Positions 98 through 36,451 of a stretch of DNA of 64,000 nucleotides are shown piece after piece. How positions within the stretch are numbered: the stretch's first letter is position 1; each line of letters starts with the position of its first letter. The notes under the pieces were generated by a model. It did no database searches and had not been told where the DNA came from. It was given only the letters and a program-made list of their open reading frames with translations. This DNA is from Methanomassiliicoccales archaeon (GTDB lineage Archaea > Thermoplasmatota > Thermoplasmata > RBG-16-68-12 > SOIM01). A program made the position numbers and the translations under genes. The stretch covers positions 21,922 to 85,921 of the forward strand of contig JAUVGH010000002.1 in the NCBI GenBank assembly GCA_030593885.1, read 5' to 3'.

Positions 98-2881
98 TCA
101 ACCCAACAAGGCCTTCACTTCACTGACCGCAACTTCAACAGCCTTATTAATCTCTTCGGAACGGGGACCGCCTCCTTGAGCGAAGTCCGGCGAACCGCCA
201 GCGCTTCCGCCCAGCACTTCGGCCGCCTTCCTGGCGACCTCCAGGGCGTCCAGATCAACGTCGGAACTCCTCGAGACCACCACGGTTCCACCGCCGGTTC
301 CGCTGGCCAGGATGCCGACCATCTGCCCCTTGGACGCGATCTCCTTCGCCAATGCCCTGAGACCGCCCATGTCCAGATCAGATACGTCCACAATGATAGA
401 GACGTCCCCGACCTTATCGGCGCCTTCAAGCAGGTCTTCGAACTTGGAGCTGGCCTCCTCACCCTTCACCTTCTCCACCTTCTTCCTCAAGGACTTCCAT
501 TCCGTGAAGAACCTCTCCACGGTCTTCGGCAGTTGAGATGGAGATACATTGACGATGCCACTTGCTTCCTTCAAGAGCGCTTCCTGTTTCTGGACGTGCC
601 TTATGGCGGGAATTCCCGCAACGAACTCGATCCTCTCCACACCGTCCTGGATGCCAGTTCTTCGAATTATCTTGATGAGCCCTATCTGACTTGTGTTTGT
701 GCAGTGCGTGCCCCCGCAACCCTGGACATCGAAGTCCCCGATCTGGATGACCCGGACGGTCTTCTGGACCGGAACACCGCCCTGATAGAGCGCAAAACCG
801 TACTTCTTCTCCGCCTCCTTTCGGTCCATTTCGGTTACAGTGACTGGTACGCCCTGCAGAACCTTCTCGTTGGCGATCATCTCGATCTTTGCGAGCTCCT
901 CCTTGTTGATCGTTTTGAAATGTGAGATGTCTATCCTTCCGTGTTCCGACGTCTTCAATGCCCCGGCCTGCCAGACGTGATCTCCCAGGACCTTTCTCGC
1001 CGAGCCGAGAAGAACGTGTGTTGCGGTGTGGTGCCTCATCAACGCCTTGCGTCTCGGCACGTTGAGCTTCCCGCGGACCTTCGTCCCTTTTGGAATGTCA
1101 GACTCGATCTGGTGGAGGATCACCTTGCCTATCTTCTCAGCCTTCTGGACCTTGATCTCGTTGCCATCGACGACGAGAACTCCCATGTCGGATTCTTGTC
1201 CACCACCTTCCGGATAGAAAGCGGTCGCGTCCAGAGCGACCTTCCCGTTCTGCGAGAATATCACCTCCGCATCGAACTCCATCATGTTCGGGTCTTGATA
1301 GTACAGCATCTCGGTGGCGGGCAGGTCCAGCTCTTCCTCGGCCTCCACCTCGGTCGTCTGTTCTTCATGTTTCCTTGCCAGGAGCGCATGAAATTCATCG
1401 GGGATCTCAATCGGGGATCCGAGTTCCTGTCCCATCTTCTGAACGACGGTGGGGTGCAGCCCATGGGCGTCATAGAGGTCCACCAGATCATCAGTGGTGA
1501 TGGGTCCCTTCTCCAGCCTTGTTTCCACCAACCTCTTACCCTTCTTGAGAGTATCCTCATATTTCCTGGTCTCGATCTGTATTATCTCGGATATTACGTC
1601 CTTCTTGCCGTAGTTCAGAATGTCATCGAAGACCTTTAGATGGATTTCGACAAGATCTGCCAGTGAGATGTCGACCTCGAGGTCCTGAAGCGCCCTGAGC
1701 GTCTTTCTGAGCAGTAACCGGGCAAGATAACCTTCTTTGATGTTGGACGGGACTATCCCATCACTGAGCATCAGTGCGACCGTCCTGGAATGGTCTGCGA
1801 CGACGAAGACTTTCTCCATGCTTTCCAGGAAATCAAAGAGTTCCTCAGAACTGAGATCGAACCCATTGGCGTGCACAGCATCGGCGACCCGGCTCCTTAG
1901 CTCAAGGACCTTGCTCCTGGTGCCAACATCGACCAGAGCGCTTAGGACGGCGTGTGTCTCCAAGGCGGACTTGTAGGCCTTGTCCTTCATCTTCTCGGAA
2001 ATGCCGGCGGCACCGTAGATGGGAGCCAGGACATTTGAATAAATCGCATCGTATATCGTGGACGAGCCCAAAGAGGCCCAGACCATTCTCTCCAGACCGT
2101 ATCCGGTGTCAACCACGTTAAGTGCCAAGGGAGAGTACTTCTCCCCTTCGAGATCGATGTCCCCCTTGTTGTCCCGCTTCATGTTCATGAAGACTAGGGT
2201 GGCAACCTCCAGACCTCCGACAATCACTTCCAGCGAAGGTCCCGCGTTCCCACCACCGATCCATGGCTCCTCCTTGTAGATTAGGTCTTCCTCGTTCGCT
2301 TCCAGGTCCTTGGTGAAGAGCTCGTGACAGTAGCTGACCGTCTCCTCCTTCCAGTAGATCGGTTTCTCCTTGCTGTTGAAGACGTGATGGGCCATCATCT
2401 CGAAACTGGTCGTGTGCTTCCCGGTCTTTCCGACCGAGTCCACGTCCACTATCCGGATGCATGGCTGTGATATGGCGAGAGGGTTCGCGGGAGGGTCCAC
2501 CAGACCGGATGTAACATGAGGTTGAAAGTCAAAGATGGATGCGCTGACCAGCAGAACGTCGTCCCTCCACCGGGGGATGATCGGATACCTGTCCACCTTC
2601 TCGTGCCCCCTTTGTTCAAAGAAATCCAGGAAGATGGTTCTCATCTCCTTCATTCCAAGTCCGCTCTTCAACAAGGGCGTGCCGATGAAGGTGAAGGGCT
2701 TGCACGGAGTGTCCCCGCAGTTGTTCTCCTCTGTCAGGCTCCAGAAGGCGGAACCGCAGGTGTCGCATATCTTCCGAGTGTGTCCATTATCCTGGAAAAA
2801 ACGCAAGCGGTATTCCTCTTCAAACACACGCTCATCATTAAGACAAATGCATATAAATCTATCCGATTTGGCCACTGCCAT
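98..2881 (-). CDS. alaS: Alanine--tRNA ligase (archaeal type, 927 aa)
   Basis: Full-length 927-aa ORF. It has class II aaRS catalytic motifs, an editing-domain HxxxH...CGGTH motif and a C-terminal DHHA1-like region, as expected for AlaRS. Confidence 0.93.
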   Translation of the reverse strand: MAVAKSDRFICICLNDERVFEEEYRLRFFQDNGHTRKICDTCGSAFWSLTEENNCGDTPCKPFTFIGTPLLKSGLGMKEMRTIFLDFFEQRGHEKVDRYPIIPRWRDDVLLVSASIFDFQPHVTSGLVDPPANPLAISQPCIRIVDVDSVGKTGKHTTSFEMMAHHVFNSKEKPIYWKEETVSYCHELFTKDLEANEEDLIYKEEPWIGGGNAGPSLEVIVGGLEVATLVFMNMKRDNKGDIDLEGEKYSPLALNVVDTGYGLERMVWASLGSSTIYDAIYSNVLAPIYGAAGISEKMKDKAYKSALETHAVLSALVDVGTRSKVLELRSRVADAVHANGFDLSSEELFDFLESMEKVFVVADHSRTVALMLSDGIVPSNIKEGYLARLLLRKTLRALQDLEVDISLADLVEIHLKVFDDILNYGKKDVISEIIQIETRKYEDTLKKGKRLVETRLEKGPITTDDLVDLYDAHGLHPTVVQKMGQELGSPIEIPDEFHALLARKHEEQTTEVEAEEELDLPATEMLYYQDPNMMEFDAEVIFSQNGKVALDATAFYPEGGGQESDMGVLVVDGNEIKVQKAEKIGKVILHQIESDIPKGTKVRGKLNVPRRKALMRHHTATHVLLGSARKVLGDHVWQAGALKTSEHGRIDISHFKTINKEELAKIEMIANEKVLQGVPVTVTEMDRKEAEKKYGFALYQGGVPVQKTVRVIQIGDFDVQGCGGTHCTNTSQIGLIKIIRRTGIQDGVERIEFVAGIPAIRHVQKQEALLKEASGIVNVSPSQLPKTVERFFTEWKSLRKKVEKVKGEEASSKFEDLLEGADKVGDVSIIVDVSDLDMGGLRALAKEIASKGQMVGILASGTGGGTVVVSRSSDVDLDALEVARKAAEVLGGSAGGSPDFAQGGGPRSEEINKAVEVAVSEVKALLG

Positions 2882-2918: not shown

Positions 2919-5390
2919 TTGGTGGATATGGATGATAATTCGCTTTCGAAGTGGGCTTCCTGCTTCTTGGCCGCGCTCTTCTTCGTTTCTGTTTTTTCGA
3001 CGGCGACCTATGATGGGGGGAGAGGACCGAGTGCATATCTGACGCCCCCAGAGGGTCCTATGGCTGATGAACCCGTGACCTTCACCAACGTCTCGGATCA
3101 GGTTGGGTTCTCCGGAGTGAGAGGGAGAAGGTTCTCTTGGGCAGACTATGATAACGACGGGGACCAGGACCTTCTAATCAACGGCAAGAGGCTCTTCCGG
3201 AACAATGGGGCTCCAGGCTGGAGTTTCACTGATGTCACAACCGATGCGGGGCTTTACGGCTCTGTCTCCAGCGGCGCATGGGCGGATTACGACAACGATG
3301 GATGGTTGGATTTCTACGCCACCGCGGGAATAGGAAGTGAGGACATCCTGTGGCACAACAACGGTGACGGGACCTTTCAGAATGTGACGTATGCTGCAGG
3401 GAACGTGCTGGACAATCTTCCATCGGTATCCGCGGGCTGGGGAGATTACGATGCTGACGGCTTCGTGGACCTATATGTAGCGAATTACGAGTTGGATTAT
3501 GTGGGAATGATGGACATCCTGTGGCACAACAACGGGGATGGGACGTTCGAGAACGTGACCGTGGCTGCAGGAATCGATGACTACACGAATCCCCGTCATG
3601 GGAGAGGAGTTGCTTGGGGCGATTACGATAACGACGGAGACCTTGACATCTACATCTCGAACTACCGGTTGGTGCCCAACTATCTCTGGGAGAACAACGG
3701 TGACGGGACCTTCACTGATAGAGCTTCAGATCGGGGCGTGGAGGGAGATAGGACCCTCTACTCCGGAAACTGGTACTGGGGCCATACGATCGGTTCCGCC
3801 TGGGGGGACATTGACAACGATGGCGACCTTGACCTGTTCACCGCGAACCTCGTGCACAAGGACAACAAATGGCCCAATGTGAGGGGGCTGTTCTGCGACG
3901 ACTCCAAGTTCTACCAGAACAATGGTTCCGCCGAGAACTACAACTTCTATGATATCAGGGATCAGGCGGGGATACCAAAAATACCAGCAGGGGAAACAAT
4001 GTACGACCCGGCTTCTGGCTTGACCTATTACAGGGATGAACTGTATTCAAGTCCCGCCTTTGCGGATTATGACAACGATGGGGACCTGGACCTGTTCGTC
4101 ACTCAGGTGTACTATCTTTCCCACGGCGACTCCCACCTCTTCAGGAACAATGGGAACTCAACATTCACGAACGTCACCGACCAAGCTGGGGTCAAGGTGT
4201 GGAACTCTTGGGGAACGGCCTGGGCGGACTATGACAACGACGGGGATATGGACTTCGTGGTGGAAGGCTCCAGCTATCCGAATCCGTTCTATGAGGTGAG
4301 GCTTTACAGGAACGACGGGACACCCAACAAATGGTTGAAGATCAATCTCAGAGGTTGCTGGAGCAATTGGGCTGGTATTGGTGCAAGGGTCACGGTGACC
4401 AACGGAACTGTCACGCAGATGAGAGAAGTTGAAGGAGGCACTGGGACTGGCTCATCACAGAACTCGATACCTGTCGAGTTCGGGTTCGATGACTACTCTG
4501 GAACGGTCGACATACATGTCAGATGGCCCAATGGTCTTGTTCAGGATATCCTTGGAGTGACATTGAACCAGACATTGGATGTGACGGAGATCAGCTGCCT
4601 CGCCGCACCGACCGCCACTTCTGCAGGGCTATCAGGGACCACCGACCAGGATGTCCAGGTGATCTGGACACCATCGGTCGACGAGGGGTCGCCCTATTTC
4701 GATCATTATGCGATCTACAGAGGCACAACATACGACAAGAAAGGACAGGGATACCAGTTCATCGGTACAGCTCCAGCGGGGACCGCTGACTTCATTGACG
4801 CGGGGATCGGACATGGAGATCCCACCACATACTTCTATTATGTTCAGGTCAACAGCACGACTGGCTTCGGCGCCAGGAGCACGACGCAGGCGGTCAAGTA
4901 CACCAGGTATCTCGAAACGGGAGCCAATCTGGTCTCGATGCCTGTTCTCACTTCGGATTCATCATTGAGCTCAGTTCTCAATACGCTGACATGGGACAAG
5001 GCATGGACCTACGACGCTTCTGATATGGTTGATCCCTGGAAGGCGTTCGATGCTGCGAAGCCATTCAACGACCTTCTGTCGACCAACCCCACTCAGGGTC
5101 TGTGGGTGAACATCATTGCACCAGACTACTACACGATCGCCGGCACGGTCCCCACCAGAACGGACATCGCTCTTTCCGCAGGCTGGAACCTGATTGGATT
5201 CCCGGGATTCACCGGCACATATTCCGTCAATGACCTGATGGCGAGCACTGGAGCTGATAGAGTGGAGAGCTTCAACCAGACAAGTGCGCCTTACCATCTC
5301 CAGGCACTGAGCGGTTCATACAACCTTCTGGCCGGCCAGGCATATTGGATCAATGTCCCAACTGCCACCACTTTGACGGTAGAGAACTGA
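2919..5390 (+). CDS. Secreted FG-GAP/VCBS-repeat protein with ASPIC/UnbV-like domain, FN3 domain and shared C-terminal tandem module
   Basis: N-terminal hydrophobic signal. Repeated 'W(A/G)DYDNDGDxD' Ca-binding FG-GAP-like repeats, then an UnbV/ASPIC-like stretch (GTGSSQNS...VRWPNG), an FN3-like region and a C-terminal 158-aa module (4914-5387) shared with three neighbouring proteins. Confidence 0.8.
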   Translation: MVDMDDNSLSKWASCFLAALFFVSVFSTATYDGGRGPSAYLTPPEGPMADEPVTFTNVSDQVGFSGVRGRRFSWADYDNDGDQDLLINGKRLFRNNGAPGWSFTDVTTDAGLYGSVSSGAWADYDNDGWLDFYATAGIGSEDILWHNNGDGTFQNVTYAAGNVLDNLPSVSAGWGDYDADGFVDLYVANYELDYVGMMDILWHNNGDGTFENVTVAAGIDDYTNPRHGRGVAWGDYDNDGDLDIYISNYRLVPNYLWENNGDGTFTDRASDRGVEGDRTLYSGNWYWGHTIGSAWGDIDNDGDLDLFTANLVHKDNKWPNVRGLFCDDSKFYQNNGSAENYNFYDIRDQAGIPKIPAGETMYDPASGLTYYRDELYSSPAFADYDNDGDLDLFVTQVYYLSHGDSHLFRNNGNSTFTNVTDQAGVKVWNSWGTAWADYDNDGDMDFVVEGSSYPNPFYEVRLYRNDGTPNKWLKINLRGCWSNWAGIGARVTVTNGTVTQMREVEGGTGTGSSQNSIPVEFGFDDYSGTVDIHVRWPNGLVQDILGVTLNQTLDVTEISCLAAPTATSAGLSGTTDQDVQVIWTPSVDEGSPYFDHYAIYRGTTYDKKGQGYQFIGTAPAGTADFIDAGIGHGDPTTYFYYVQVNSTTGFGARSTTQAVKYTRYLETGANLVSMPVLTSDSSLSSVLNTLTWDKAWTYDASDMVDPWKAFDAAKPFNDLLSTNPTQGLWVNIIAPDYYTIAGTVPTRTDIALSAGWNLIGFPGFTGTYSVNDLMASTGADRVESFNQTSAPYHLQALSGSYNLLAGQAYWINVPTATTLTVEN

Positions 5391-5435: not shown

Positions 5436-6584
5436 ATGGTGATATACATGAAATCCAGAGGGAACGCCATGTGGGCAAAACTGTCAGCCGTTCTTCTTGC
5501 GTCGCTTGTTGTAGGTGTAGCATTCAGCGCGTTCCTTCCCGTCAGGGTGACCGCTGCAGAGGGCGAACCCAGGAAGGTGATGCTGGAGCTGATGACGGCC
5601 ACCTGGTGCGCATCATGTCCATACGCTGACGAGGCAGCGGATGATCTTTCAAGGGACTACGGACCAGAGAGATTCACCGTTCTGCAGTATCATGTTTCAC
5701 TCGATGGCCTGGACACTGTGGAAACCAACGAGAGACGCGACGATTACAATGCAGGACAGACCGGTCTCCCGGCGGCTTGGTTCGATGGGACAGAAGGCGT
5801 TCATTCGGTAGGAAGTCAGGAGGTCAAGTTCTTCTACGACCTGTACAAGGAGAAGATCGATGAGAGGTTAGACAGCCCCAGCCCGATCTCCATATCCCTG
5901 ATGCTGTCTGAATCATCGGGAGAGCTCACGGTCTCGGCTTCATTCGCGAAGTTGAGGACTATACTGGTGCCGGACACCATCCACGCGAGATTCGTCCTGT
6001 TTGAGAATTCGGTTCAGTACAACGCGATACTCTACAACTACGTGGTCAGGGACGTCGAGCTGAAGGATTTCCATTATGATGCACTGCCATACTCCGAGCC
6101 GGTGACTTTTGGGATCGAGTCGGGATGGGATTCCTCCAAGATGGGGGTTGCTGTTTACGTTCAAGCGGAGACGAATGGTGAGGTTCTCCAGTCCGCGAGT
6201 GGGGTTATTGGACCTGAGCCATCGGTCACGATCACTACCGACATAGACGGCAAGGAGATATCGGGCCCAACAACGATTGAGGGAACTGCCTCCGGTGACG
6301 TCGCATGGGTCGAGGTCAGGATTGATGATCAGCAATACACGATCGCAGATGGAACGACCTCCTGGAGCTTCGATCTGGACCCCAGTCAACTCTCGGCTGG
6401 AACGCACACGTTGAAGGTCAGAGCATACTCGAATTCACTGATCTATTCTGATATTGTGGAAGCGGAGTTTGAGACCACAAGCGACCTCTTGCTGTACATA
6501 CTGGTGGTCGTGATCATAGCAGTCGTCTTATTGGTCGCCGCACTCGTGGTCCGGAAGAGAGGGAAGGAAGTATCAGACATCTAG
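5436..6584 (+). CDS. Membrane-anchored extracytoplasmic protein with thioredoxin-like WCxxC domain (start may be 5448 or 5469)
   Basis: Signal/TM at the N-terminus. 'LELMTATWCASCPY' is a thioredoxin-like active-site motif (Cys codons at 5607-5609 and 5616-5618). C-terminal hydrophobic helix plus RKRGK tail acts as a TM anchor. The N-terminal ~250 aa are homologous to the start of the 7896..10469 protein. A TATA-like 'aatgaatatatcatt' lies upstream at ~5410. Confidence 0.6.
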   Translation: MVIYMKSRGNAMWAKLSAVLLASLVVGVAFSAFLPVRVTAAEGEPRKVMLELMTATWCASCPYADEAADDLSRDYGPERFTVLQYHVSLDGLDTVETNERRDDYNAGQTGLPAAWFDGTEGVHSVGSQEVKFFYDLYKEKIDERLDSPSPISISLMLSESSGELTVSASFAKLRTILVPDTIHARFVLFENSVQYNAILYNYVVRDVELKDFHYDALPYSEPVTFGIESGWDSSKMGVAVYVQAETNGEVLQSASGVIGPEPSVTITTDIDGKEISGPTTIEGTASGDVAWVEVRIDDQQYTIADGTTSWSFDLDPSQLSAGTHTLKVRAYSNSLIYSDIVEAEFETTSDLLLYILVVVIIAVVLLVAALVVRKRGKEVSDI

Positions 6585-6650: not shown

Positions 6651-7781
6651 ATGAGGATATCAATGCAACTCAAATCGGTGGCGATCTGCATTCTAGTCGT
6701 CAGCGCCATCGTTCCTTTGGCCGCAACCATCGTCCTCGCACAGGACGTCACGCCTCCTGAGATACTCGATGTAACGCTAACTCCGAAGTACCCTCAAGAA
6801 GCTGATTCGCACGTATTCACCGCAAGAATCATCGATTCTGAGAGCGCCATACAGGTTGTTGAGTTGGCCTATTGCCCACTGGGCCAGGCCTGCCTGTTCA
6901 CAGAGATGTTCGATCTTGATATGGACGATATCTACGACGCTACGGTAGGTCCGTTCATGACTGGTGACGTTTATGATTACTTCATTTCAACCAGGGACAC
7001 CGAGAGTAACTTGAACCAAACAGAAATCACCTGGGTTAAGGTCGCCGCTGACATAACCTTCGATTTCCAGCTGAGTGCCAGCATGATTGTGCAGGGCAAG
7101 AGCCTATGGGCAAACGGCACGGCGTTGTACGATGACAACACGACGACACCTGTGGAGACCTCAGACGTCGGCCTTACGATAGATGGAACGTCCGTAGATG
7201 TTACTGGCACCACCGACGACAAAGGAAATTTCAGCATCCCTTTCACCGCACCTGAGACTGCCGACGACTATGAGGTGAATGTCACGGTCACTAACAGATC
7301 TTTGTCCAATTACAGTCTGGCTCCTCTCAACACAACCCTGCCAGGAGACGCTGACGGGGACGGTCTCACTGATGATGAAGAGATTGCGCTTGGCACTGAT
7401 CCTCAGGATGCGGACACAGATGATGACGGACTGGACGATTATGAGGAAGTCAACGCGGGCGATGACGGTTACACAACCAACGCGACCAACAGCGATACGG
7501 ACGGGGACGGGCTCAATGACTGGGAAGAGATCAACGAAGGAGAGGACACTTTCCTCACTGACCCGACGAACGAGGACACGGACGGGGACGGAGCCACGGA
7601 CTCAGAGGACTGGGACCCTACCGACTCGAGCGTCCAGGAGGAACCTAAAGAAGAGGACCTGACCTGGATGTATTTGATGATCGTCGTAATCGTGGTCGTT
7701 GTTATTGTATTGGCTGTCTTACTTATGCGAAGAAGGTCTGGCGCAGAAACATTAGAACCTGAGGAAGAAGATTCATCCTAG
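6651..7781 (+). CDS. Secreted protein with thrombospondin type-3-like Ca-binding repeats (DxDxDGxxDxxE) and C-terminal TM anchor
   Basis: Signal peptide. Run of 'DADGDGLTDDEE / DTDDDGLDDYEE / DTDGDGLNDWEE / DTDGDGATDSED' repeats. C-terminal hydrophobic helix followed by RRRS. Confidence 0.7.
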   Translation: MRISMQLKSVAICILVVSAIVPLAATIVLAQDVTPPEILDVTLTPKYPQEADSHVFTARIIDSESAIQVVELAYCPLGQACLFTEMFDLDMDDIYDATVGPFMTGDVYDYFISTRDTESNLNQTEITWVKVAADITFDFQLSASMIVQGKSLWANGTALYDDNTTTPVETSDVGLTIDGTSVDVTGTTDDKGNFSIPFTAPETADDYEVNVTVTNRSLSNYSLAPLNTTLPGDADGDGLTDDEEIALGTDPQDADTDDDGLDDYEEVNAGDDGYTTNATNSDTDGDGLNDWEEINEGEDTFLTDPTNEDTDGDGATDSEDWDPTDSSVQEEPKEEDLTWMYLMIVVIVVVVIVLAVLLMRRRSGAETLEPEEEDSS

Positions 7782-7895: not shown

Positions 7896-10469
7896 ATGAG
7901 ATGGGGTTTCAAAAAGATGTGGGCTATCATCATAGTCTTTGCAATGTTCGGCATTGCATTTGTGGGCGTGGCAACTGAGAACGAGAATAACGCTGTTTCT
8001 TTGAACGACTCTGTTACAACTACGTTTTCGAACGAGGGGACCAGAGGTCCTGGTGCACCCAGAGTGGTGTTGATGGAACGCTTCACCAATGTTGGATGCG
8101 GTCCATGTGCGCCGGCGAGCATCAGGGAGGATCAATTCATCCAGGACCATAGTGTCGATGACCTGGCCGTGATCAAGTATCACATGTATTGGCCGGATGG
8201 AAACGACCCTATGTACCTCATGAACACCCAACCCCAACTGGATAGAAGGGACTTCTATGGAACGATCGGGTTCGTGCCCTATTCGATAGTGGACGGTCTT
8301 CTCCTGTCGGACGATGCCCAGCAGAATGGGAACTATCCGATCACTTACAGCCTCTACCAGAGGTTCTACGATCAGAGAAGAGCATTACTGAGCCCGTTCA
8401 CGGTAGATGTGGATGGTGTTCTCGGAGCTACCATGGGTACGGTTTCGGTCAACGTGACTGCAGTGGATACAGTTCCGGTTGGTGCCTTGAAGGTCAGATT
8501 GGCGCTGTATTTCAATGACGTGGAATATGCCACTTCACCGGGCAGCAATGGGGAGAAGAGGTTCGGATTCGTCTTCATGGACTTCATCCCGGACATCGAC
8601 GGAATGGACCTGACGATCTCGATGGGACAGACCGTGAACTTCATCCAGACATTCACTATCCCCACCGAGATACCGGCAGGCGGGGGAGATCCGGCAGTAC
8701 CGGTGGAGAGAGCTCAGCTGGGAGTGGTTGCTATGGTCCAGGACGAGGTCACGAGAGAGGTCCACCAGGCAGGTGTCCTCTCATTCACCGACCTGTCCAT
8801 TAATCCGATGGGGATACTGACAACCCCGTTGAACCCGAATCTAGGGGACTTGGTCGGCATTTCCGCAAGGGTCGTTAACAACGGTGAAGACATCAGCAAC
8901 GCATATGTCACTGCATACATCGATCAGGTTGGGGGAGATCCCATCGGTCCTCCGATATCCACGGGTCCGATGTTCAAGGGTCAGATGAAGATAGTCGGCC
9001 TCGGGGCATGGGACACCACGGGACAGCCGGGGGTCAGGAAGGTGGTCGCCAAAGTGGACATCGACGGTGACTACTACGAGTCCGACGAGGTGAACAACGT
9101 TGTCACCAAGGACGTGAACGTGGCAGCCCAGTTCGATGTCGGCATTTCCCAGATAGGTCCGTTCAATGAAGGGATGATGTATCCCATGAGCAACTACTCG
9201 TTGGACGGGAGCATAAAGAACTTCGGACAAAACGCGATGGGAGATTTCGATGTGGACATACAGCTGTACCAGCTCGGCCTGCCTGATGTTCCTGTTTCGA
9301 CCTTCATGGATGATATGGAAGGAGGCATTGGAGGTTGGACCGAGAGCGGCGGGAGTTGGGCGTATGGAGCCCCATCACCGGCACCCGGAGCGCATTCGGG
9401 AGCTAGTGTCTGGGCAACTGTGCTCACCGGCAATTACCCGTCAAATACGGTCGATTGGCTGTATTCCCCGATAGTGAGCATACCGTCGAGCGCAAGTTCC
9501 GCGAGCCTGAGCTTCTGGAACTTCTATTCGTTCCAGTTTGCGTCAAAACCACCCAATGATGTGCACTACGATTGCGGGAACTTGTGGATATCCACAGACA
9601 TGGGTGTCACATGGGAGATGGTGGAACATTTCAAGGCCAACAATGGTGCTTGGAATCAGGAGACATACGATCTGACTTCATATGTCGGGCAATCAGTGAG
9701 ATTCGCCTTTGAACTCGCTGCAGATGGAAGCGGAGGCCAATTGGGATGGTACATAGATGACTTCGAGGTGACCTCAATGGTTCCGACGGAGACACTGGTC
9801 TGGAACACGACAACCAGGATGTCGACCATCCTTGCATCTGGCGGAGTTGATTCGCTCATTTGGAACCAGAAGATCATCACTGGAGGCCCACACAAGCTAT
9901 ACGTATGGACGCCTCTTGGAGGAGATCAGAACCCTGACAACGACCTGAGCACACTGACATTCGACATCGATGACACCAAGTGGAGGAACGTGGTGACCCC
10001 CGTAGCGTCACTGGTTTCGTCCCCCTTGACACTCACCGAGACCAACATCGCGAACATTGTTGCACCTTCAGCGCCTGCCTTGACCTCGGTCAGGACCTAC
10101 GACGCAGTAACAGGCACGTGGTTGGGATACGATCCGGCCAAGCCCGCCAACAGCCTTTCGGCAGTGGATCACAGGATGGGCATGTGGGTAACGAATCCTT
10201 CAGGTGGATACATAGACTTCACCGGAACGATACCGGGCATAACTGTTGACATACAGCTTGAAATCGGGTGGAACCTCATAGGATATCCATCAATGACGGA
10301 CAGGACCGTCGCAGACGCTCTGTCCACGATCACATACGAAAGGATAGAAGGGTTCGATGCGACAGGACCGTATCATCTGAGGGAACTGACTGGCAGCGAT
10401 TGGATGACGGCTGGACAGGGCTACTGGATACACGTATCCTCGCAACAGATGTGGTCAGTGAACGCTTAG
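7896..10469 (+). CDS. Secreted multidomain protein: thioredoxin-like CxxC domain, CARDB-like domain, choice-of-anchor-J/MAM-like domain, and the shared C-terminal tandem module
   Basis: The ORF track starts at 7809, but the SD-preceded ATG at 7896 (MRWGFKKMWAIIIVFAMFGIA, TM/signal) is more plausible. 'NVGCGPCAP' is a Trx-like motif (Cys codon at 8097). A CARDB-like region follows ('VVAKVDIDGDYYESDEVNNV'), then a choice-of-anchor-J/MAM-like region ('GGWTESGG...LWISTDMGVTWE...GWYIDDFEV'). The C-terminal module is at 9990-10466. Confidence 0.75.
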   Translation: MRWGFKKMWAIIIVFAMFGIAFVGVATENENNAVSLNDSVTTTFSNEGTRGPGAPRVVLMERFTNVGCGPCAPASIREDQFIQDHSVDDLAVIKYHMYWPDGNDPMYLMNTQPQLDRRDFYGTIGFVPYSIVDGLLLSDDAQQNGNYPITYSLYQRFYDQRRALLSPFTVDVDGVLGATMGTVSVNVTAVDTVPVGALKVRLALYFNDVEYATSPGSNGEKRFGFVFMDFIPDIDGMDLTISMGQTVNFIQTFTIPTEIPAGGGDPAVPVERAQLGVVAMVQDEVTREVHQAGVLSFTDLSINPMGILTTPLNPNLGDLVGISARVVNNGEDISNAYVTAYIDQVGGDPIGPPISTGPMFKGQMKIVGLGAWDTTGQPGVRKVVAKVDIDGDYYESDEVNNVVTKDVNVAAQFDVGISQIGPFNEGMMYPMSNYSLDGSIKNFGQNAMGDFDVDIQLYQLGLPDVPVSTFMDDMEGGIGGWTESGGSWAYGAPSPAPGAHSGASVWATVLTGNYPSNTVDWLYSPIVSIPSSASSASLSFWNFYSFQFASKPPNDVHYDCGNLWISTDMGVTWEMVEHFKANNGAWNQETYDLTSYVGQSVRFAFELAADGSGGQLGWYIDDFEVTSMVPTETLVWNTTTRMSTILASGGVDSLIWNQKIITGGPHKLYVWTPLGGDQNPDNDLSTLTFDIDDTKWRNVVTPVASLVSSPLTLTETNIANIVAPSAPALTSVRTYDAVTGTWLGYDPAKPANSLSAVDHRMGMWVTNPSGGYIDFTGTIPGITVDIQLEIGWNLIGYPSMTDRTVADALSTITYERIEGFDATGPYHLRELTGSDWMTAGQGYWIHVSSQQMWSVNA

Positions 10470-12186: not shown

Positions 12187-15100
12187 ATGAGGCGGGGTAG
12201 TAAAGTGGTCACAGCCCTCGACAAGATCAAGTCGACGGTCATGGTGACGTTGCTAGTCCTTGGAACGTTCGTTTTGGCGGTAAGTGTACCTGGTGAGGAA
12301 CCACCAGACATACCAGGCTGGCCGAACGACGGCGACTGGATTAACTATACGTATCGAGGAGAGAGAATTAGGGATTGGGAAGACAAGCCCTATGAGAACG
12401 ACCCGACACATGGGATAGCCAATGTCCAGCCGAAGGCGGTTGACATCGCATCTGGAGTTGACAAGAGTGGGGGAAATGCCGCATCTAATCCGGGCAACTA
12501 CACTTCTGTTCAATACCTATATGATGATGTTGACGGTGATAGCGACGGCTGTTCCGATATCGATGACGACTGGCTCTTCCTCAGGCAGAGAATTGCCGGG
12601 GATCCCAGACACGGTGGACAGTACGCGTACAAAGCGTACCACTGGGACATATTGCTGGAAGTTGACGGTGACCAGTGGAGCGAGTTCGTGGTCGACCTGA
12701 ACGGTGGAAATGGGTACTACAAGTTCGGAACCGTAGGTGTGTACTACAGCGACACTGACGACTACGAGTATGATCCAGATAATGATTGGGTCTGGCTCCA
12801 GCCAGCGACCGGGAAGAAGAACTTGTTCACCAACGCCCGGCTCATTGACTATGATGACGATGATGATGATAACGACCAATGGTGGATCGAGTACAAGGTT
12901 CCGATAACAGCCTTCACGGATCGGGACGATAACCAGCTGCTCTGTGCGGACACCGACTTCCTTCTGTTTTTCAGCACCTCTGCCTCAGCAACAAACCCTC
13001 TGCAGAAGGATTGGATGGGAGAGTTCGTTTTCGGTGAGCCGGCCAATATCACGGTTGTCAAGACAGTGGAGGAGGACATAGTAAAGCCGGGAGATACTCT
13101 TCACTACAAGATCTATTACAACAACACTGGAGAGTTCAATGCGGGCAATGTGTGGATCAACGATACGATACCTGACTACACGACGTTCAAAGAATCGAAT
13201 CCCAACTACAATTCGAGTTCTGGACAGACATACAGATGGCATTTCACGGACGTTGAACCTGGGAATCACACCATCTATCTGAATGTGACAGTGGACACGG
13301 ATGTGCCAGATGGCGAGGTACTTCGGAACGTTGCAGTTCTGAACTACACGGACACCGATGACAACGAGCTACCTGGCTCAGAGGATGAGACCGAGAATCC
13401 TGTTGCAGGCCCTTTCTTGAAGATGGCAAAGGAAGTTGATGTCGCAACTGCCGACCCAGGCGATGTGCTGCATTATGAGATCATCATGCAGAACACTGGA
13501 GGCGGTGGGGCGTACAACGTTACAGTAAACGATACCATACCTGAGCATACCACTTTCGATAGTTCATATCCAGACTATGATTCGGTAGATGGCAGAACCT
13601 ACACATTCATCATAGACAAGATTGCTGGAAAGACAAACTTCACCATTTTCCTGAACGTGACCGTTGATGCCTACACAGATGATGGGACGGTACTTGTCAA
13701 CTATGCGACAGCAGACTATAGGGACGCGAATGGCAACGTGTATGAAAGACTCTATGACTGGGCCAATGTGACGGTGACCGCTCCCATAATGGACGTCACA
13801 AAGATCGCTGATGTTACAACCGCTGACCCGGGCGATGAGATCACGTACACGCTCACCTATGACAACACTGGCACTGGCCAGGCTTCAGATGTGGTGATTG
13901 AGGACACGATACCGGAGCACACAACATTCGTCAGCTCCACACCCAATTACGACGAGGTTGATGGCAGAACCTACACCTGGAATATCGGTCTGGTCGATGG
14001 AGGAGATTCCGGAACCATTGCAATCACTGTCAAGGTTGACGCAGGAACAGCTAATGGTACGATTCTGACCAATGATGTCACTCTGGACTACGATGACGCT
14101 AACGGGAATCCGTACCCACAGGAAACTGACTCTGTGGATGTAACAGTGATCGCTCCTATTCTAACCCTTTCGAAGACGGCGAGCGTCGCCGAGGCCAACC
14201 CTGGAGACACGATAACGTACTCCATAAATTACGAGAACACTGGAAGCGGCAAAGCCACGAACGTATACGTCAACGACACGATTCCCAACGAGGTGACGTT
14301 CGTCACTTCATCGCCTGCATATACCAGCAAGAGCGGGAACACTTACATCTGGGCAATCGGTGACGTATGCGCTGGATGCAGCGGCATCATAACCATACAG
14401 GTCACGGTAAACGCGGCCGTTCCTGACGAAACGGTGATGAGGAACACAGTCACCCTGGACTACTCAGATGCAAATGGAAATCCGTACGCACAACTGTCCG
14501 ACTATGTGGACGTGACCGTCACAGCGCCAATAATGACTATAACGAAGGTCGCTGACGTTGGGACGGCGGACCCAGGAGATGAGATTACTTACACCCTCAC
14601 CTACGAGAACACAGGCACTGGCGATGCAGGAGGAGTGATCGTAAAGGACACCATACCCACAGACACGATATTCGTTAGTTCGAACCCTGCATACTCCAGC
14701 AAGACTGGAAATACATACACATGGAACGTTGGAACTGTGACAGCAGGCAGCAGCGGAACAATCACGATAGTGGTCAAGGTCAAGGCTGGAATAGCTGATG
14801 AGACGGTCCTTCTCAATACGGCAGTCCTGTACTACGAAGACGTCAACGGCAATCCATATCCGACCAAGGAAGACACTGCTGAAGTGACCGTAACCTCACC
14901 GATCATGACAGTTTCGAAGACGGCTGACGTCACGACCGCGGACCCAGGGGACGAGATAAACTACACCCTAAGCTACGATAACACAGGAACCGGAAACGCC
15001 AAGAACGTCAAGATAATCGATACTTTGCCGAGTGATGTGACATTCGTTACCTCCTATCCGGCATACAGCAGCGCCAGCGGGAACGTCTACACATGGAATG

Positions 15101-31282: not shown

Positions 31283-33424
31283 ATGGAATCTCACAGGAAG
31301 AACAAGACACGCAACTTCGCAAGAGGGGCAGCCCTGTTCATATCCACGTTCATTCTCTTGATGAGCTTTGTCGTCATCGGCCCAGCGACCGAGGTTCAGG
31401 CTGGAAAGATGGTCCGCGGAATAATCTTCTTCGACACGAACTGGACCCTGGCCGACAGCCCCATATGGGTGGAGGGGAGCATCCTGTTGCCCCAGGGAGT
31501 CAACTTGACCATAGAGCCAGGGGTGGAGATCAGATTCAACGGGAACTTCACAATGTGGGTGAACGGCAACTTCACATCTCTCGGGACATCGGCCAACAAG
31601 ATTGTGTTCAAGTCCAACAGCACCACGCCAGGATACAACGACTGGTTCAAGATAAGGGCGAATGTGACCAGCAGGTTCGAGGTTTCCCACACTCAATTCC
31701 AGAACGCCTTCTCGGCTATCGAACTCATGGGAAGGGACGGGGACTCTTTCACGAACCTCTCGTTCGAGGATTCGTTCATTGGCATTGCAGCACTCTGGTC
31801 ATCTGGCGTCTCGGTAACGAACAGTTCGTTCACGGATGTCTATCACGGTCTCAAACTGACCAACAGCAGCAACATGGTGAAGAACAACGTGTTCACTGGA
31901 GGGAGAATAGCGACAGACATCTCATGCAACGACGTGGTCAAATTCTGTATAGACAACGTGGTCGAGGGGAATGATTTCTCTGACATGGAAGGTGGAGTGT
32001 ATCTTAGATCCGATTCACAGTGGACTGAGCTCTCAAAAAACAGAATCCACAACAATACATTCCTAGATGTGGACGGACCGATATCCATCTATAACACCGT
32101 GGGTGCCTCAGAGAAGAACGTCATTGAGAACAACTCCATGGAAGCTGGCGGATACGGGGTCTTCCTTACGGGCACGGCGAACAACACGGTTCAAGGTAAC
32201 GACATCACCGGTTTCAGGGAGAGCGTTAGTCTCTACGGAGCAGAACAGAACCTGGTGACCAGGAATGTGATGTCCAGAGGATTAGACGGTATCGTCGTGA
32301 GGGACGGGAACATTGGAAACGAGATATCATTCAACAACATTGTCTCACTAACTGGCTGCGGTGTGGCATTGGTACAAGGAACATCCGACAACCTGATACA
32401 TCACAACAATCTGCTTGACAGCGGCTATAACGGATGCGATCCTGGACTGGGCAATCGATGGGACAACGGCTATCCTTCAGGGGGGAACTTTTGGTCGGAC
32501 TATACGGGTCCAGATGCATTCAACGGGCCCAACCAGGACATACCCGGGGCAGATGCGGTCGGGGACACACCTTACGATACGAGAGGGAGTGGCAGGGACA
32601 ACTATCCACTGCTATGGATGCCGTTCGAAAACATCCCGCTCACGAAACTCAGCGCAGAACTGACCGGACAGAACTTCGAGAACGTCACCATCTCATGGGA
32701 CCTTACCTGGCCCAATGGAAATGTATCTCTGAACATCACCAGGTTTGACGTCTTCAGATCGGATTTATATGAGGAGAGTAGGTCTGGATATCAACTTCTG
32801 GCCTCTTTATCGAATGACACTTTTGAATACGTGGATCTAAAAGCCGGGGAAGGGAATGCCTCCAACTACTTCTACTACGTTTGCGCGGTCAACAAGACGA
32901 GCGTCTCTCACTGCAGCTTGGACCAAGTTGGCAAGTTCACGCGCGCACTGGACACAGGATGGAGCTTGATCTCGGTACCTCTGATCCCGAACGACGCAAG
33001 GACGGCAAATGTGCTGCAAACGACCGCCTTCGACCAGGTGCTCACTTACGATGCGAGGGATTTCGATGACCACTGGAAGGGATATTCTCTGATGAAAATG
33101 CACAACGATATGCCAGAGATGGATGTGTTCAAGGGTTACTGGATCCATGCTATGAGCGACTCCAACCTGACTGTCGCGGGACTGGTACCGACCGTTACCA
33201 GGATACATCACGCCACCGGCTGGAACCTGGTGGGCTACCCGTCCTTCACGAACTTGACGTTCGAATCTGCCTTGGAAGGAAAGCTCTGGGATTCTGCTGA
33301 GGGCTTCGACAATTCATCGATTCCATTCCACTTGAAAGAGTTGTCCGGATTGGACATGATGACTGCTGGCCATGGATATTGGATAAACTTCTCGACCGGT
33401 GGGGTTTGGACGGTTAGGAACTAA
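31283..33424 (+). CDS. Secreted right-handed beta-helix (NosD/pectate-lyase-like) protein with FN3 domain and shared C-terminal tandem module
   Basis: Signal peptide. Parallel beta-helix repeat signatures (N..F.....GI.L..S..N.I.NN), a 'GGNFWSDYTGPDAFNGPNQDIPGADAVGDTPYD' motif, FN3-like region, and the C-terminal module at 32945-33421. Confidence 0.85.
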   Translation: MESHRKNKTRNFARGAALFISTFILLMSFVVIGPATEVQAGKMVRGIIFFDTNWTLADSPIWVEGSILLPQGVNLTIEPGVEIRFNGNFTMWVNGNFTSLGTSANKIVFKSNSTTPGYNDWFKIRANVTSRFEVSHTQFQNAFSAIELMGRDGDSFTNLSFEDSFIGIAALWSSGVSVTNSSFTDVYHGLKLTNSSNMVKNNVFTGGRIATDISCNDVVKFCIDNVVEGNDFSDMEGGVYLRSDSQWTELSKNRIHNNTFLDVDGPISIYNTVGASEKNVIENNSMEAGGYGVFLTGTANNTVQGNDITGFRESVSLYGAEQNLVTRNVMSRGLDGIVVRDGNIGNEISFNNIVSLTGCGVALVQGTSDNLIHHNNLLDSGYNGCDPGLGNRWDNGYPSGGNFWSDYTGPDAFNGPNQDIPGADAVGDTPYDTRGSGRDNYPLLWMPFENIPLTKLSAELTGQNFENVTISWDLTWPNGNVSLNITRFDVFRSDLYEESRSGYQLLASLSNDTFEYVDLKAGEGNASNYFYYVCAVNKTSVSHCSLDQVGKFTRALDTGWSLISVPLIPNDARTANVLQTTAFDQVLTYDARDFDDHWKGYSLMKMHNDMPEMDVFKGYWIHAMSDSNLTVAGLVPTVTRIHHATGWNLVGYPSFTNLTFESALEGKLWDSAEGFDNSSIPFHLKELSGLDMMTAGHGYWINFSTGGVWTVRN

Positions 33425-33780: not shown

Positions 33781-33902
33781 AACGATTCCCATCGGGAATG
33801 GACCCGCTGACACTTCTTCTGGCCGCTTCCGTTTTTACTCTGATTGGCGTGATTGCAGGGATCGCTACGGTACTCTTCCCGGGACTTGGTAGAATTTCCT
33901 AG
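33781..33902 (+). pseudogene. Truncated, diverged duplicate of the tctA 5' end (upstream leader plus first ~33 codons; MDPLTLLLAASVFTLIGVIAGIATVLFPGLGRIS*)
   Basis: 33781-33886 is ~87% identical to 37267-37372. The first 60 nt are ~95% identical ('aacgattcccatcgggaatggacccgctgacacttctt...'). Confidence 0.6.
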
Positions 33903-36451
33903 TACCCGACGAACGTGAACTTCGACGAAGGACCATCTATCGAAATCTGGTATCCTTCACCTTGAAGGACATCTACGTCATAGACTCCCTGAGGCATCTC
34001 TTTTGCGTGATACTTCCATTCGCCGAACGTTGAATACGCCATGCCGGCAACGTCGGGAATCGCATCACAGTACCAGTCCAAGGAGTTGTTCTCAACGGGC
34101 TTCAACGGGAGGGCAAATGTATCCGAGCCCCACGAATAAACGATTGACATGACGCCGACGCTGTAGGTGCTCGACCCCCGCCAGTTCACATCCCTGACCG
34201 GAACAACAAGGTAATACCACTGAGCGCCGGTCGCCAGCGCGTCTGTGTGCACGGCGGTCGCCCTGGGCAGCCCAGTGGCGGGGACGGTGGCCAGAAGGAA
34301 GTAGTCAGTCCCGGGATATCCTCTCAGACCCTCTGGTGTCATGGAGTAGTAGACTTGATATGTTCCGTTCGGCGGCTCGAATCCGGCTATCTCGCTCCAC
34401 TCAATGACCACATCGCTTCCTTTTATCGTGGCTGTGATCTCCCTGGCGGTCGTTGCCGGGTCGAATCCTCCAAGCGGATAAGGAGGCCATTCACCGAAAT
34501 CTATCATCGAGGCGGGAAGACCAGTGAAGGTGAAGGCGGTTGGAGCGCTGAATGAGACCGAGTACCCCTCGCCGAGAATCATCGCGCGATCGGGGTCTCC
34601 ATCTCCCGGAACCGACAGCCACTTTCCGTCCTCAAGGTAGCTGACGGAGAGGGCTCCTGTCGAGGACGAGAAAGCACTCAGGTTGCTTACCCAGCCGACG
34701 GATGAGTAGTTGACCCATGGATATGGACTGAGAGGAAGGGAGAACGTGGACATGCCCGCGGGGAACTCGTAGGTCCACTTGCCAGCAGTATTGCTGGTCG
34801 CGCTGCTCCTGTTGAGGGTGGAATTGTGCGCTCTCATGACGTAGTATTTTGTGCCAGGAGTGGCCGCGGCACCGGGTATTGTCCAGGACGTTACATTGCC
34901 TACGTCGACGTGCGACGAGAAGTCGAATTCAGTCTGACTGTCCGCAACGTACAGGAAGTAAGAGTCGGCCATGGGCGATCGTCGCCAGCTCAGAACGATG
35001 TCCGCGCCCACGGCCTTCGCCGTCAGCTCGCGCGGAACACCTGGCGCGGGGACGGAGTAGAACGGGTAGAAGTCCTTCCCCTTGGTCGGGATATAGTACG
35101 GCGTGTCCCCGAACCCGTCGGGCCCCGGTATGTCCTGGTTTATCCCTTTGAAGAGGTCGTCTCCCACGTAGTCCGACCAGTGGTTCCCCCCGGATGGATA
35201 CAAGTCGTTCCAGAACGAGCCGTCGGACGAGTCTGATGCCTGCATCCCGTTGTACATGATCCAGTTGTGGTAGACCCTGTGCCCCTGTCCGTCCTCCAGT
35301 CGTATCCCTTCCGCGTTCGCCTCGACCGTGTTGTTGAACACATTCACGAAGCGGGAATCTTCCACCCTCAGACCGATTCTGTTGCCGACCAAGGCATTGT
35401 CTCTGATGATCGTGGACTGAGTCATGTAAACCTCGATCCCCCAGTGTCTGCTGTCCGACACGTGGTTGCCCGCAATCACATTCCCCACGCCGCCGGACAT
35501 GCTACCATCGTCAAAGATTCCCATGCTGTTGTCATGCAGCCGGTTGTTCAGCACAAGCGTGCCACTGCTGCGGTATAGAAATATCCCAAAGGTGCACCTA
35601 CTGATGTCGTTCTCCGTGATGCTCAGTGAGCCTCCAATCACATGGACACCTGCGTAGAACCCATCGATTACGTTCCCATGGATCCTGACATTGGCACCAG
35701 GGTGGACCTCGATTCCGTCGAAGCTGATGGGCGAATGTATGGTGTTGAAGGAGAATTCTCCGAATTCGATCTTCCACGCCTCAATCCCGTCGCCTTCAGA
35801 GGCCACTATCCTGCTCTTCGTGATGATGACCCTCCTCGCGTCACCGATGTTGACAGTGGATCGAGGGCTGAGAATATCGACCTGTTCCAGAACGAGGTCG
35901 CCGCGCATTCCCGCCCCCATGGTCCCCTTATACACGGTTCCATTCACCATGGTCGCGTTGCGGGCGAAGATCGAGCCGTCTAACCGCGCCACAAGTTGCC
36001 ACGGCAACGACGGCAGTGGAGTGACGTTCCAGGTCATCAAGACAGGTTCAGTAACAGTACCGCGGATATCCAATGTGCCAAAAACGGTGATGGTGGCGTT
36101 TAAGTCCAGAAACTGGTTGAACTGTACCTCGACGCCCGGTCCGATCGTGAGGGCCGCGCCCGATAAAATAGTCATTCCCTCCTCGACCCAGTATGGATTT
36201 CCCGTGGCGTTCCAGGTGATGTTGCCTGTGATGATTCCACCCACTCGCGTCCCGGTCAGGCGGTACGGTGGGGAGTCCGCGGCGGGCTCTTCGGATAGCA
36301 AGGAGGACAGGGGCGAGGAGATGGCGGTGAGGAGCAGGAGAGCGCACACCACAATGATAGGCAGCACTCCCTTTCTCGCACTGGGACGTGTGTCACTGCT
36401 CATGTTCGCCCTCTCCATTCGGAGTGCATGCGCATTCCCTCGAATGACCAA
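33899..36451 (-). CDS. Secreted beta-helix (NosD-like) paralog with two FN3-like domains and two copies of the shared C-terminal module (likely start 36418 or 36403)
   Basis: Paralog of 31283..33424, sharing the beta-helix and the 'GGNHWSDYVGDDLFKGINQDIPGPDGFGDTPYY' motif. TM/signal after an internal Met. C-terminal 281 aa (33902-34744) contain module-FN3-module. Confidence 0.8.
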   Translation of the reverse strand: MVIRGNAHALRMERANMSSDTRPSARKGVLPIIVVCALLLLTAISSPLSSLLSEEPAADSPPYRLTGTRVGGIITGNITWNATGNPYWVEEGMTILSGAALTIGPGVEVQFNQFLDLNATITVFGTLDIRGTVTEPVLMTWNVTPLPSLPWQLVARLDGSIFARNATMVNGTVYKGTMGAGMRGDLVLEQVDILSPRSTVNIGDARRVIITKSRIVASEGDGIEAWKIEFGEFSFNTIHSPISFDGIEVHPGANVRIHGNVIDGFYAGVHVIGGSLSITENDISRCTFGIFLYRSSGTLVLNNRLHDNSMGIFDDGSMSGGVGNVIAGNHVSDSRHWGIEVYMTQSTIIRDNALVGNRIGLRVEDSRFVNVFNNTVEANAEGIRLEDGQGHRVYHNWIMYNGMQASDSSDGSFWNDLYPSGGNHWSDYVGDDLFKGINQDIPGPDGFGDTPYYIPTKGKDFYPFYSVPAPGVPRELTAKAVGADIVLSWRRSPMADSYFLYVADSQTEFDFSSHVDVGNVTSWTIPGAAATPGTKYYVMRAHNSTLNRSSATSNTAGKWTYEFPAGMSTFSLPLSPYPWVNYSSVGWVSNLSAFSSSTGALSVSYLEDGKWLSVPGDGDPDRAMILGEGYSVSFSAPTAFTFTGLPASMIDFGEWPPYPLGGFDPATTAREITATIKGSDVVIEWSEIAGFEPPNGTYQVYYSMTPEGLRGYPGTDYFLLATVPATGLPRATAVHTDALATGAQWYYLVVPVRDVNWRGSSTYSVGVMSIVYSWGSDTFALPLKPVENNSLDWYCDAIPDVAGMAYSTFGEWKYHAKEMPQGVYDVDVLQGEGYQISIDGPSSKFTFVGY

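Follow-up and report, generated by a model that had tools for sequence, protein, structure and literature searches.

A duplicated beta domain at the C-terminus of secreted proteins forms a large unmodelled family in uncultured Thermoplasmata, with a probable role in surface anchoring or binding

The window analyzed here, a 64,000-nucleotide stretch of a Methanomassiliicoccales archaeon (contig JAUVGH010000002.1), encodes three secreted proteins, designated A, B, and C, with a common C-terminal region. We are highly confident that this region consists of two tandem copies of one mostly beta domain of ~75-85 residues, and that the domain belongs to a very large family without a database model, which has been massively expanded in uncultured Thermoplasmata. 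It is established that, in these archaea, a large number of Sec-type secreted proteins are marked at the C-terminus by a genuine, independently folding, duplicated beta domain. The role of the family is probably surface anchoring or binding. Our preferred but tentative reading is that the twin domain is a non-covalent module for retention or docking at the cell surface.

Proteins A, B, and C share a unit of ~160 amino acids that runs up to the stop codon. The unit is 38% identical from end to end and has 36 invariant columns, which include GWNL[IV]G[YF]P and GxGYWI. The original prediction had placed such a region in these proteins (4908/4914-5387, 9990-10466, and 32945-33421), and both the positions and the motifs were recovered, with a similarity that persists in a proper alignment. 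It had also described a two-part region with modules 1 and 2. Comparison of the copies by BLASTP and with a single-module hidden Markov model (HMM) revealed instead a tandem duplication of one domain of 75-85 residues. Copies in the same position matched most closely (A1-C1, 2e-21; B2-C2, 2e-24; A2-B2, 1.5e-17; A2-C2, 1e-17; A1-B1, 2e-11), and copy 1 also matched copy 2, both between proteins (C1-B2, 2e-7; A1-B2, 4e-6) and within one protein (C1-C2, 6e-5). Applied to a six-frame translation of the window, the single-module HMM found all six copies of A-C and nothing else. The consensus of each copy is G-W-N-L-[IV]-[SG]-x-P ... Y-D ... [DP]-W-K ... G-x-[GY]-W-[IV] ... T-V-x-G, and the aromatic residues W44, W66, W93, Y98, Y145, and W146 (C's numbering) are nearly invariant. 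Chance similarity of the three ends was ruled out because of these E-values and the hundreds of homologs.

The fold of the twin domain was predicted with AlphaFold2 for C residues 555-713 using a 49-sequence alignment. The mean predicted local distance difference test score (pLDDT) was 97.6, each residue exceeded 90, and the predicted template modeling score (pTM) was 0.90. Each copy has the predicted topology beta-alpha(short)-beta-beta-beta-beta, and both copies are predicted to pack as one rigid unit. Foldseek searches with the twin-domain model of C gave no match at E≤1e-3 in the whole PDB or among viral models (BFVD), and the family profile produced only chance-level matches to PDB sequences, with a best E of 0.08. 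As originally predicted, no named family matched the module: scans of A-C against Pfam-A (2025 copy) and NCBIfam release 20 returned no model with E≤1 that covers the terminal ~160 residues. Pfam-A likewise returned no model overlapping the module in the distant relatives P0051, P0054, P0055, P0058, and P0077, and precomputed Pfam annotation was empty for 45 of 46 homologs. Literature searches by motif strings (GWNLVS and similar) found no paper, those by keywords found only general reviews, and neither gave a description of the twin domain. This is a large domain family that is absent from Pfam-A and NCBIfam and has no similar solved structure.

The size of the family was estimated by searching 1.84 billion cluster representatives (50%-identity clusters) exhaustively with HMMER. 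At E≤1e-3, 27,194 proteins were retrieved; the number fell to 10,433 at E≤1e-10 and to 2,815 at E≤1e-30. A pattern scan of one genome per species yielded 446 confirmed sites, the best 78 loci of which came from 25 genomes; the patterns were built from the three-sequence alignment, so this survey is biased toward the Thermoplasmata subfamily. All but one of the best 78 loci are labelled as a Thermoplasmata, Methanomassiliicoccales, Thermoplasmatota, or Methanobacteriota archaeon. The other lies in a Chloroflexota metagenome-assembled genome (MAG; JAHJIN010000477), where L050 (2530-6519) encodes a 1330-residue protein with a terminal twin module that scores 214 bits, as high as archaeal ones. 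Its presence there suggests lateral transfer or a binning error. Single genomes can hold many copies, and the best 78 loci include at least 11 from Thermoplasmata archaeon RS_5_45 and 7 from CSMAG_404. RS_5_45 is a sister genome with orthologs of A, B, and C, and its C ortholog (L001) is 82% identical over the module.

Two features of the family, position and cargo, bear on its function. Of the 97 open reading frames (ORFs) with a module in the 25 genomes, 86 have only 0-3 residues between the module and the stop codon. Of the top 150 cluster representatives, 131 have full-length matches, and 111 of these end ≤5 residues from the C-terminus; most of the others also prove terminal when their second matched stretch is included. 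The cargo of 55 archaeal carriers is dominated by NosD/beta-helix proteins (29), followed by papain-family proteases (Peptidase_C1, 5) and CARDB (4), with single cases of FG-GAP, Amidase_3, GH18, WD40, and lectin. The claim of a shared C-terminal module therefore stands for enzymatically unrelated secreted proteins, but the family also occurs internally, in repeats, at the N-terminus, or before a transmembrane (TM) anchor. Bacterial-looking relatives carry 5-7 internal copies beside PKD, dockerin, DUF11, or BNR domains, and others have an N-terminal copy before Pro/Thr linkers. In four loci (L022, L044, L067, L077) and three representatives (P0070, P0133, P0136), the module is followed by a linker of 60-85 residues, a TM helix, and a basic tail.

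Further variants were observed in the course of the survey. The linker of the TM-anchored variants is acidic or low-complexity, and several have 'SSG(G/M)L.LFA' just before the helix; together with the helix and the basic tail, this motif looks like a sortase-style tripartite signal, to judge by sequence. In an architecture that recurs in L029 (5068-7185), L045 (5071-7203), P0176, and P0181, the twin module is followed by an unannotated, conserved domain of ~240 residues ('PYxVFGYVYLYDGTSAGGY...NATFDAPYSNxGYNYT'). P0035, encoded in L080 (1329-6139), is a stand-alone protein of 229 amino acids with an N-terminal hydrophobic segment and the twin module. Its gene lies within a co-directional run of six small genes, in which the sole Pfam trace is DUF7617 (0.005, below cut-off), and the neighbors of the short stand-alone module proteins P0025 and P0035 had no useful Pfam annotation. 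Apparent 'stand-alone' ORFs in L011 and L033 were rejected; they have no start codon and resemble 3' remnants of interrupted genes.

A fourth protein of the window, D, had been predicted to share the module with A, B, and C. This holds for the latter three, whereas D is a probable distant relative and not a demonstrated member. Its two D-type copies match each other at 1e-7 (BLASTP), are separated by an extra beta-rich spacer, and follow the pattern G-x-x-[FL]-[SA]-L-P-L ... W-K ... G-E-G-Y-x-[IV]-S ... F-T-F-x-G. An example is 'GSDTFALPL...GEGYQISIDG...FTFVGY'. The copies were detected neither by the six-module HMM of A-C nor by the 49-sequence family profile, and a local jackhmmer search from D did not merge with the main family. 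D-type modules form a separate small family, which comprises D, two sister-genome loci (L060 3-2795 and L014 11875-12480), and four metagenome fragments (P0047-P0050). Alignment of the two family profiles with hhalign was full-length and in register, but its significance was borderline throughout: E was 0.05 with thin profiles, P was 3e-4 (probability 17.5%) with 594 single modules, and the score was above that of 199 of 200 column-shuffled controls. AlphaFold2 reached a pLDDT of only 32 on the last 296 residues of D with a thin 5-sequence alignment.

All four modules had also been described as preceded by an FN3-like domain. A spacer profile built from A, C, and relatives matched solved FN3 domains in the PDB, namely titin FN3 (3lpw, 1e-4), MyBP-C FN3 (2e-4), and chitinase A1 (1k85, 6e-4), which bears out this description for A and C. 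The same profile found no spacer in B or D, and Pfam fn3 gave no match at E≤10 on single isolated spacers.

If the twin domain is a docking module, the following sequence of events would apply. N-terminal signal peptides would direct the module proteins to Sec export, and the FN3-like spacer would hold the cargo (beta-helix, FG-GAP propeller, or CxxC/CARDB) away from the cell. The C-terminal twin domain would bind a common envelope component non-covalently; possible candidates are glycans or lipoglycans of the surface, proteins of the S-layer, and proteins anchored in the membrane. Proteins without a membrane helix or lipid anchor would thereby be kept on the cell surface. The twin module would thus be an alternative to the C-terminal TM anchor of neighboring surface proteins, and would act like SLH, GW, or dockerin modules while being unrelated to them.

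Docking is preferred because, without the module, the carriers would have no means to stay on the cell after signal-peptide cleavage. Each of A-D has a single hydrophobic, signal-like segment, located at the N-terminus, and none of them contains a hydrophobic 19-mer above 1.8 near the C-terminus; the predicted lack of a terminal TM helix in the four proteins is therefore correct. They end in ...TVEN (A), ...SVNA (B), ...TVRN (C), and ...FVGY (D). In the window, these module-ended proteins are interleaved with E, F, and G, which lack the module and carry a TM anchor at the C-terminus. The N-terminal CxxC (thioredoxin/Omp28-like) domains of E and B are homologous (BLASTP 2e-10, 28% over 170 amino acids), so that the same CxxC cargo has two endings, a TM anchor in E and the twin module in B. 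A shared partner on the cell's own surface is suggested because the module takes the place of the TM anchor in neighboring and homologous proteins, because in the rare TM-anchored variants it lies just outside the anchor and so next to the membrane, and because its sequence tracks genome more than cargo. In related pairs, identity is 48% for the module and 37% for the cargo. For modules on unrelated cargo it is 46% within a genome and 39% between genomes, the pairs not being independent; the higher within-genome similarity fits a shared, lineage-specific partner. More broadly, a common sorting, anchoring, or ligand-binding function, as originally proposed, agrees with the C-terminal position, the many paralogs, and the diverse cargo, from which we infer it indirectly.

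Several points weigh against docking. Across the loci, complete, secreted-like ORFs have a hydrophobic C-terminus in 0 of 75 cases with the module and in 21 of 40 cases without it. This contrast speaks for docking, but it is partly built in, since a terminal module leaves no room for a helix, and some of the 40 are polytopic membrane proteins. When 596 neighboring ORFs from the 78 loci were clustered, no family occurred in more than 6 of the 25 genomes, and no partner was identified. Variants that have both the module and a TM anchor imply that the module is not a simple anchor substitute. Recent duplication or shuffling of modules would explain the high similarity within genomes equally well. 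Signal cleavage is assumed; were the signal retained as an anchor, the distal tip would be occupied by the module. Finally, 5-7 internal repeats or N-terminal copies are a pattern typical of general binding modules such as carbohydrate-binding modules (CBMs).

The last point leads to the main rival of docking, which is that the twin domain is a general lectin- or CBM-like module that aims enzymes and adhesins at external substrates, such as polysaccharides, detritus, or other cells. We regard this as possible but somewhat doubtful. The cargo is typical of extracellular hydrolases and adhesins, with papain proteases, GH18, amidase, and NosD/pectate-lyase-like helices, and relatives with internal multi-copy repeats, N-terminal copies before Pro/Thr linkers, or a dockerin indicate a CBM-like use. 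The nearly invariant aromatics would, if exposed, suit a sugar-binding face. However, substrate-specific CBMs do not usually have a near-absolute C-terminal position or occur in dozens of copies on unrelated cargo in each genome, and similarity that is higher within than between genomes is more in keeping with a self partner than with a universal external ligand. Docking and ligand binding would become one and the same reading if the module bound the surface glycan of its own cell.

A structural role is improbable. As a cap, the twin domain would form dimers or trimers or stabilize the end of the protein, as the C-terminal domains of phage tailspikes do for beta-helices, and right-handed beta-helix proteins do make up 29 of the 55 carriers. 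The predicted packing of the two copies into one rigid unit (pTM 0.90) would also suit a cap. However, propellers, proteases, CARDB arrays, and WD40 proteins bear the same module, and these do not share a need for a cap. Moreover, the FN3-like spacer lies between the module and the cargo, and the module is not packed on the helix.

It is very improbable that the module is a C-terminal export or sorting signal for a dedicated translocon or processing enzyme, possibly removed after use. The module is strictly C-terminal, with 0-3 residues beyond the last strand, and has many substrates per genome with unrelated cargo; this overall logic is also that of type IX secretion system C-terminal domain (T9SS CTD) proteins (PMC4804311, PMC4560394). 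However, the carriers already have N-terminal Sec-type signals, a highly ordered double domain of 160 amino acids is large for a signal, and the family is also found in internal and N-terminal positions and ahead of TM anchors. No conserved neighbor gene was found among the 25 genomes, and neither HMM searches nor fold comparison relate the module to the T9SS CTD. We know of no second membrane or dedicated machinery in these archaea, which also counts against this reading.

The docking reading can be extended. In a speculative form that we consider unlikely as it stands, the twin domain is an undescribed fold and the docking half of a new archaeal display system, in which dozens of Sec-secreted enzymes and adhesins per cell would be held on one envelope receptor in uncultured sediment Thermoplasmata. 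If true, archaea would have a fourth means of anchoring surface proteins, in addition to TM segments, lipobox lipidation, and archaeosortase/PGF-CTERM. In a bolder version, the module may be the recognition signal for a hitherto unknown sorting machinery.

Genes A-D lie in a surface-protein island of ~35 kilobases with the gene order A, E, F, B, G, H, C, D (Table 1). The island is flanked by alanyl-tRNA synthetase and aspartyl-tRNA synthetase genes, from 98-2881 (-) to 39522-40871 (-), and is adjoined by genes for a DHH/DHHA1 protein and a TctA transporter. The window also holds a geranylgeranyl reductase gene and archaeal-type housekeeping genes. In Pfam, A matches FG-GAP_3 (3e-39) and UnbV_ASPIC (3e-14), C matches NosD (1e-26) and Beta_helix (1e-20), and D matches NosD (5e-21). 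Protein B matches the NCBIfam models choice_anch_J (1.5e-9, above cut-off) and Omp28_seleno (1e-10, below cut-off), with weak Pfam matches to CARDB and InhA MAM. An identical 820-amino-acid product of A is present in a public collection, with a cluster mate named 'CRTAC1 family protein [Thermoplasmata archaeon]'; identical products of B (857 amino acids), C, and D (839 amino acids) are also present, without informative names. Protein E has a Big_7 domain and a hydrophobic segment at residues 345-376 of 382, and the E-B gene pair is kept in the sister genome (L003, L008). The giant protein G has an N-terminal signal-like segment, a C-terminal TM anchor, and no twin module. The Kelch/BNR-like repeat protein has neither a twin module nor a C-terminal TM segment and represents a third class of C-terminus in the island.

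Table 1. Carrier genes, twin-module copies, spacers, and interleaved surface-protein genes in the window
Feature	Position	Strand	Description
Gene A	2928..5390	+	Secreted FG-GAP/ASPIC protein (CRTAC1-like), 820 amino acids from ATG 2928; ORF 2919-5390
FN3-like spacer of A	4569..4868	+	Upstream of module; ends in 'YFYYV' strand; spacer profile match
A module copy 1	4908..5156	+	ORF residues 664-746; single-module HMM 8e-33
A module copy 2	5169..5387	+	ORF residues 751-823; HMM 1e-24; stop codon directly after
Gene E	5436..6584	+	CxxC-domain protein, C-terminal TM anchor, no twin module
Gene F	6651-7781		Surface protein, C-terminal TM anchor, no twin module
Gene B	7896..10469	+	Secreted CxxC (Omp28-like)/CARDB-like/choice-of-anchor J protein, 857 amino acids from ATG 7896; ORF from 7809
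B module copy 1	9990..10238	+	Residues 728-810 (ORF from 7809); HMM 9e-26
B module copy 2	10254..10466	+	Residues 816-886; HMM 3e-27; stop codon directly after
Gene G	12187-25860	+	4557-residue giant: ~30 DUF11 repeats, DUF7619/DUF7507, Chlam_OMP6-like, PKD
Kelch/BNR-like repeat protein	26019-31271	+	1750 residues, secreted-looking
Gene C	31283..33424	+	Secreted NosD-type right-handed beta-helix, 713 amino acids
FN3-like spacer of C	32612..32914	+	Upstream of module; spacer profile match
C module copy 1	32945..33193	+	Residues 555-637; HMM 3.5e-36
C module copy 2	33206..33421	+	Residues 642-713; HMM 7e-27; stop codon directly after
Gene D	33899..36418	-	Second NosD-type beta-helix, convergent with C, 839 amino acids from ATG 36418; ORF 33899-36451
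D-type module copy 1	34508..34768	-	Residues 562-648; possible distant relative of A-C module
D-type module copy 2	33902..34141	-	Residues 771-850; stop codon directly after

The carrier lineages are uncultured Thermoplasmata MAGs, and several isolate names suggest sediment or seep samples. To our knowledge, the surface retention of secreted enzymes in archaea without a classical wall is poorly understood, and extracellular proteases and beta-helix proteins are likely tools of these lineages for the degradation of detrital polymers. As a sequence handle, the single module would allow prediction of the surface and secreted proteome in metagenomes, and the twin domain would be a concrete reagent for fishing out an envelope receptor. 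A family of >27,000 clusters merits a database model and a solved structure. Should the module turn out to be a general binding domain and nothing more, a large family missing from the libraries would remain, with an apparently new fold to which no solved structure is similar. The family is of interest for both archaeal cell-surface biology and domain annotation.

The kind of device proposed here, a terminal surface-targeting module, is a known category and not a new one. PGF-CTERM is a short tripartite signal, in which a motif is followed by a TM helix and then a basic tail. Proteins A-D, in contrast, end in a beta strand and have no hydrophobic segment, and NCBIfam, which holds the PGF-CTERM models, gave no PGF-CTERM match in the four proteins. 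A terminal TM or PGF-CTERM anchor was ruled out because there is no hydrophobic tail. PGF-CTERM/archaeosortase A is the best-known archaeal C-terminal marking of surface proteins, with up to 52 substrates per genome (PMC6098224). That review, 'Archaeal cell surface biogenesis', describes TM segments, lipobox lipidation, and archaeosortase-dependent lipid anchoring as means of surface anchoring. Keyword look-ups in that paper returned no passage on a folded C-terminal docking domain. The original prediction had set the module apart from PGF-CTERM, the T9SS CTD, and SLH domains, and this agrees with the missing hydrophobic tail in the first case and with the absence of an HMM or fold match in the other two.

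The T9SS CTD (Por_Secre_tail) is a single Ig-like sandwich of ~80 amino acids that is specific to Bacteroidota and needs an outer-membrane translocon and the PorU sortase. Like the twin domain, it is beta-rich and lies at the extreme C-terminus of dozens of unrelated secreted proteins per genome (PMC4804311). Unlike it, the twin domain is double and archaeal, and is also non-terminal in relatives. The T9SS sorting domain models (TIGR04183/PF18962) gave no HMM match at E≤1 in the four proteins, and the predicted fold is not an Ig-like sandwich. SLH domains and the dockerin-cohesin pair are likewise based on small, repeated terminal modules, which dock diverse enzymes onto a surface polymer or scaffold. 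Pfam gave no match to SLH (PF00395), dockerin, or cohesin on the module, and the distant relative P0051 has a separate dockerin in addition to it. As here, CBMs are small beta domains with conserved aromatics, joined to extracellular hydrolases via linkers or FN3 spacers.

GW modules bind an envelope polymer and hold proteins on the cell non-covalently. Retention of this type by wall teichoic acid is a related theme in PMC10335673. The twin domain has neither an HMM match to the GW module (PF13457) nor an SH3-like fold. The Listeria GW modules of InlB, Ami, and Auto are nevertheless also tandem C-terminal modules of ~80 residues on unrelated secreted proteins, and Gly-Trp is found in both. By analogy, the twin domain would functionally most resemble these GW modules, SLH domains, dockerins, and the T9SS CTD.

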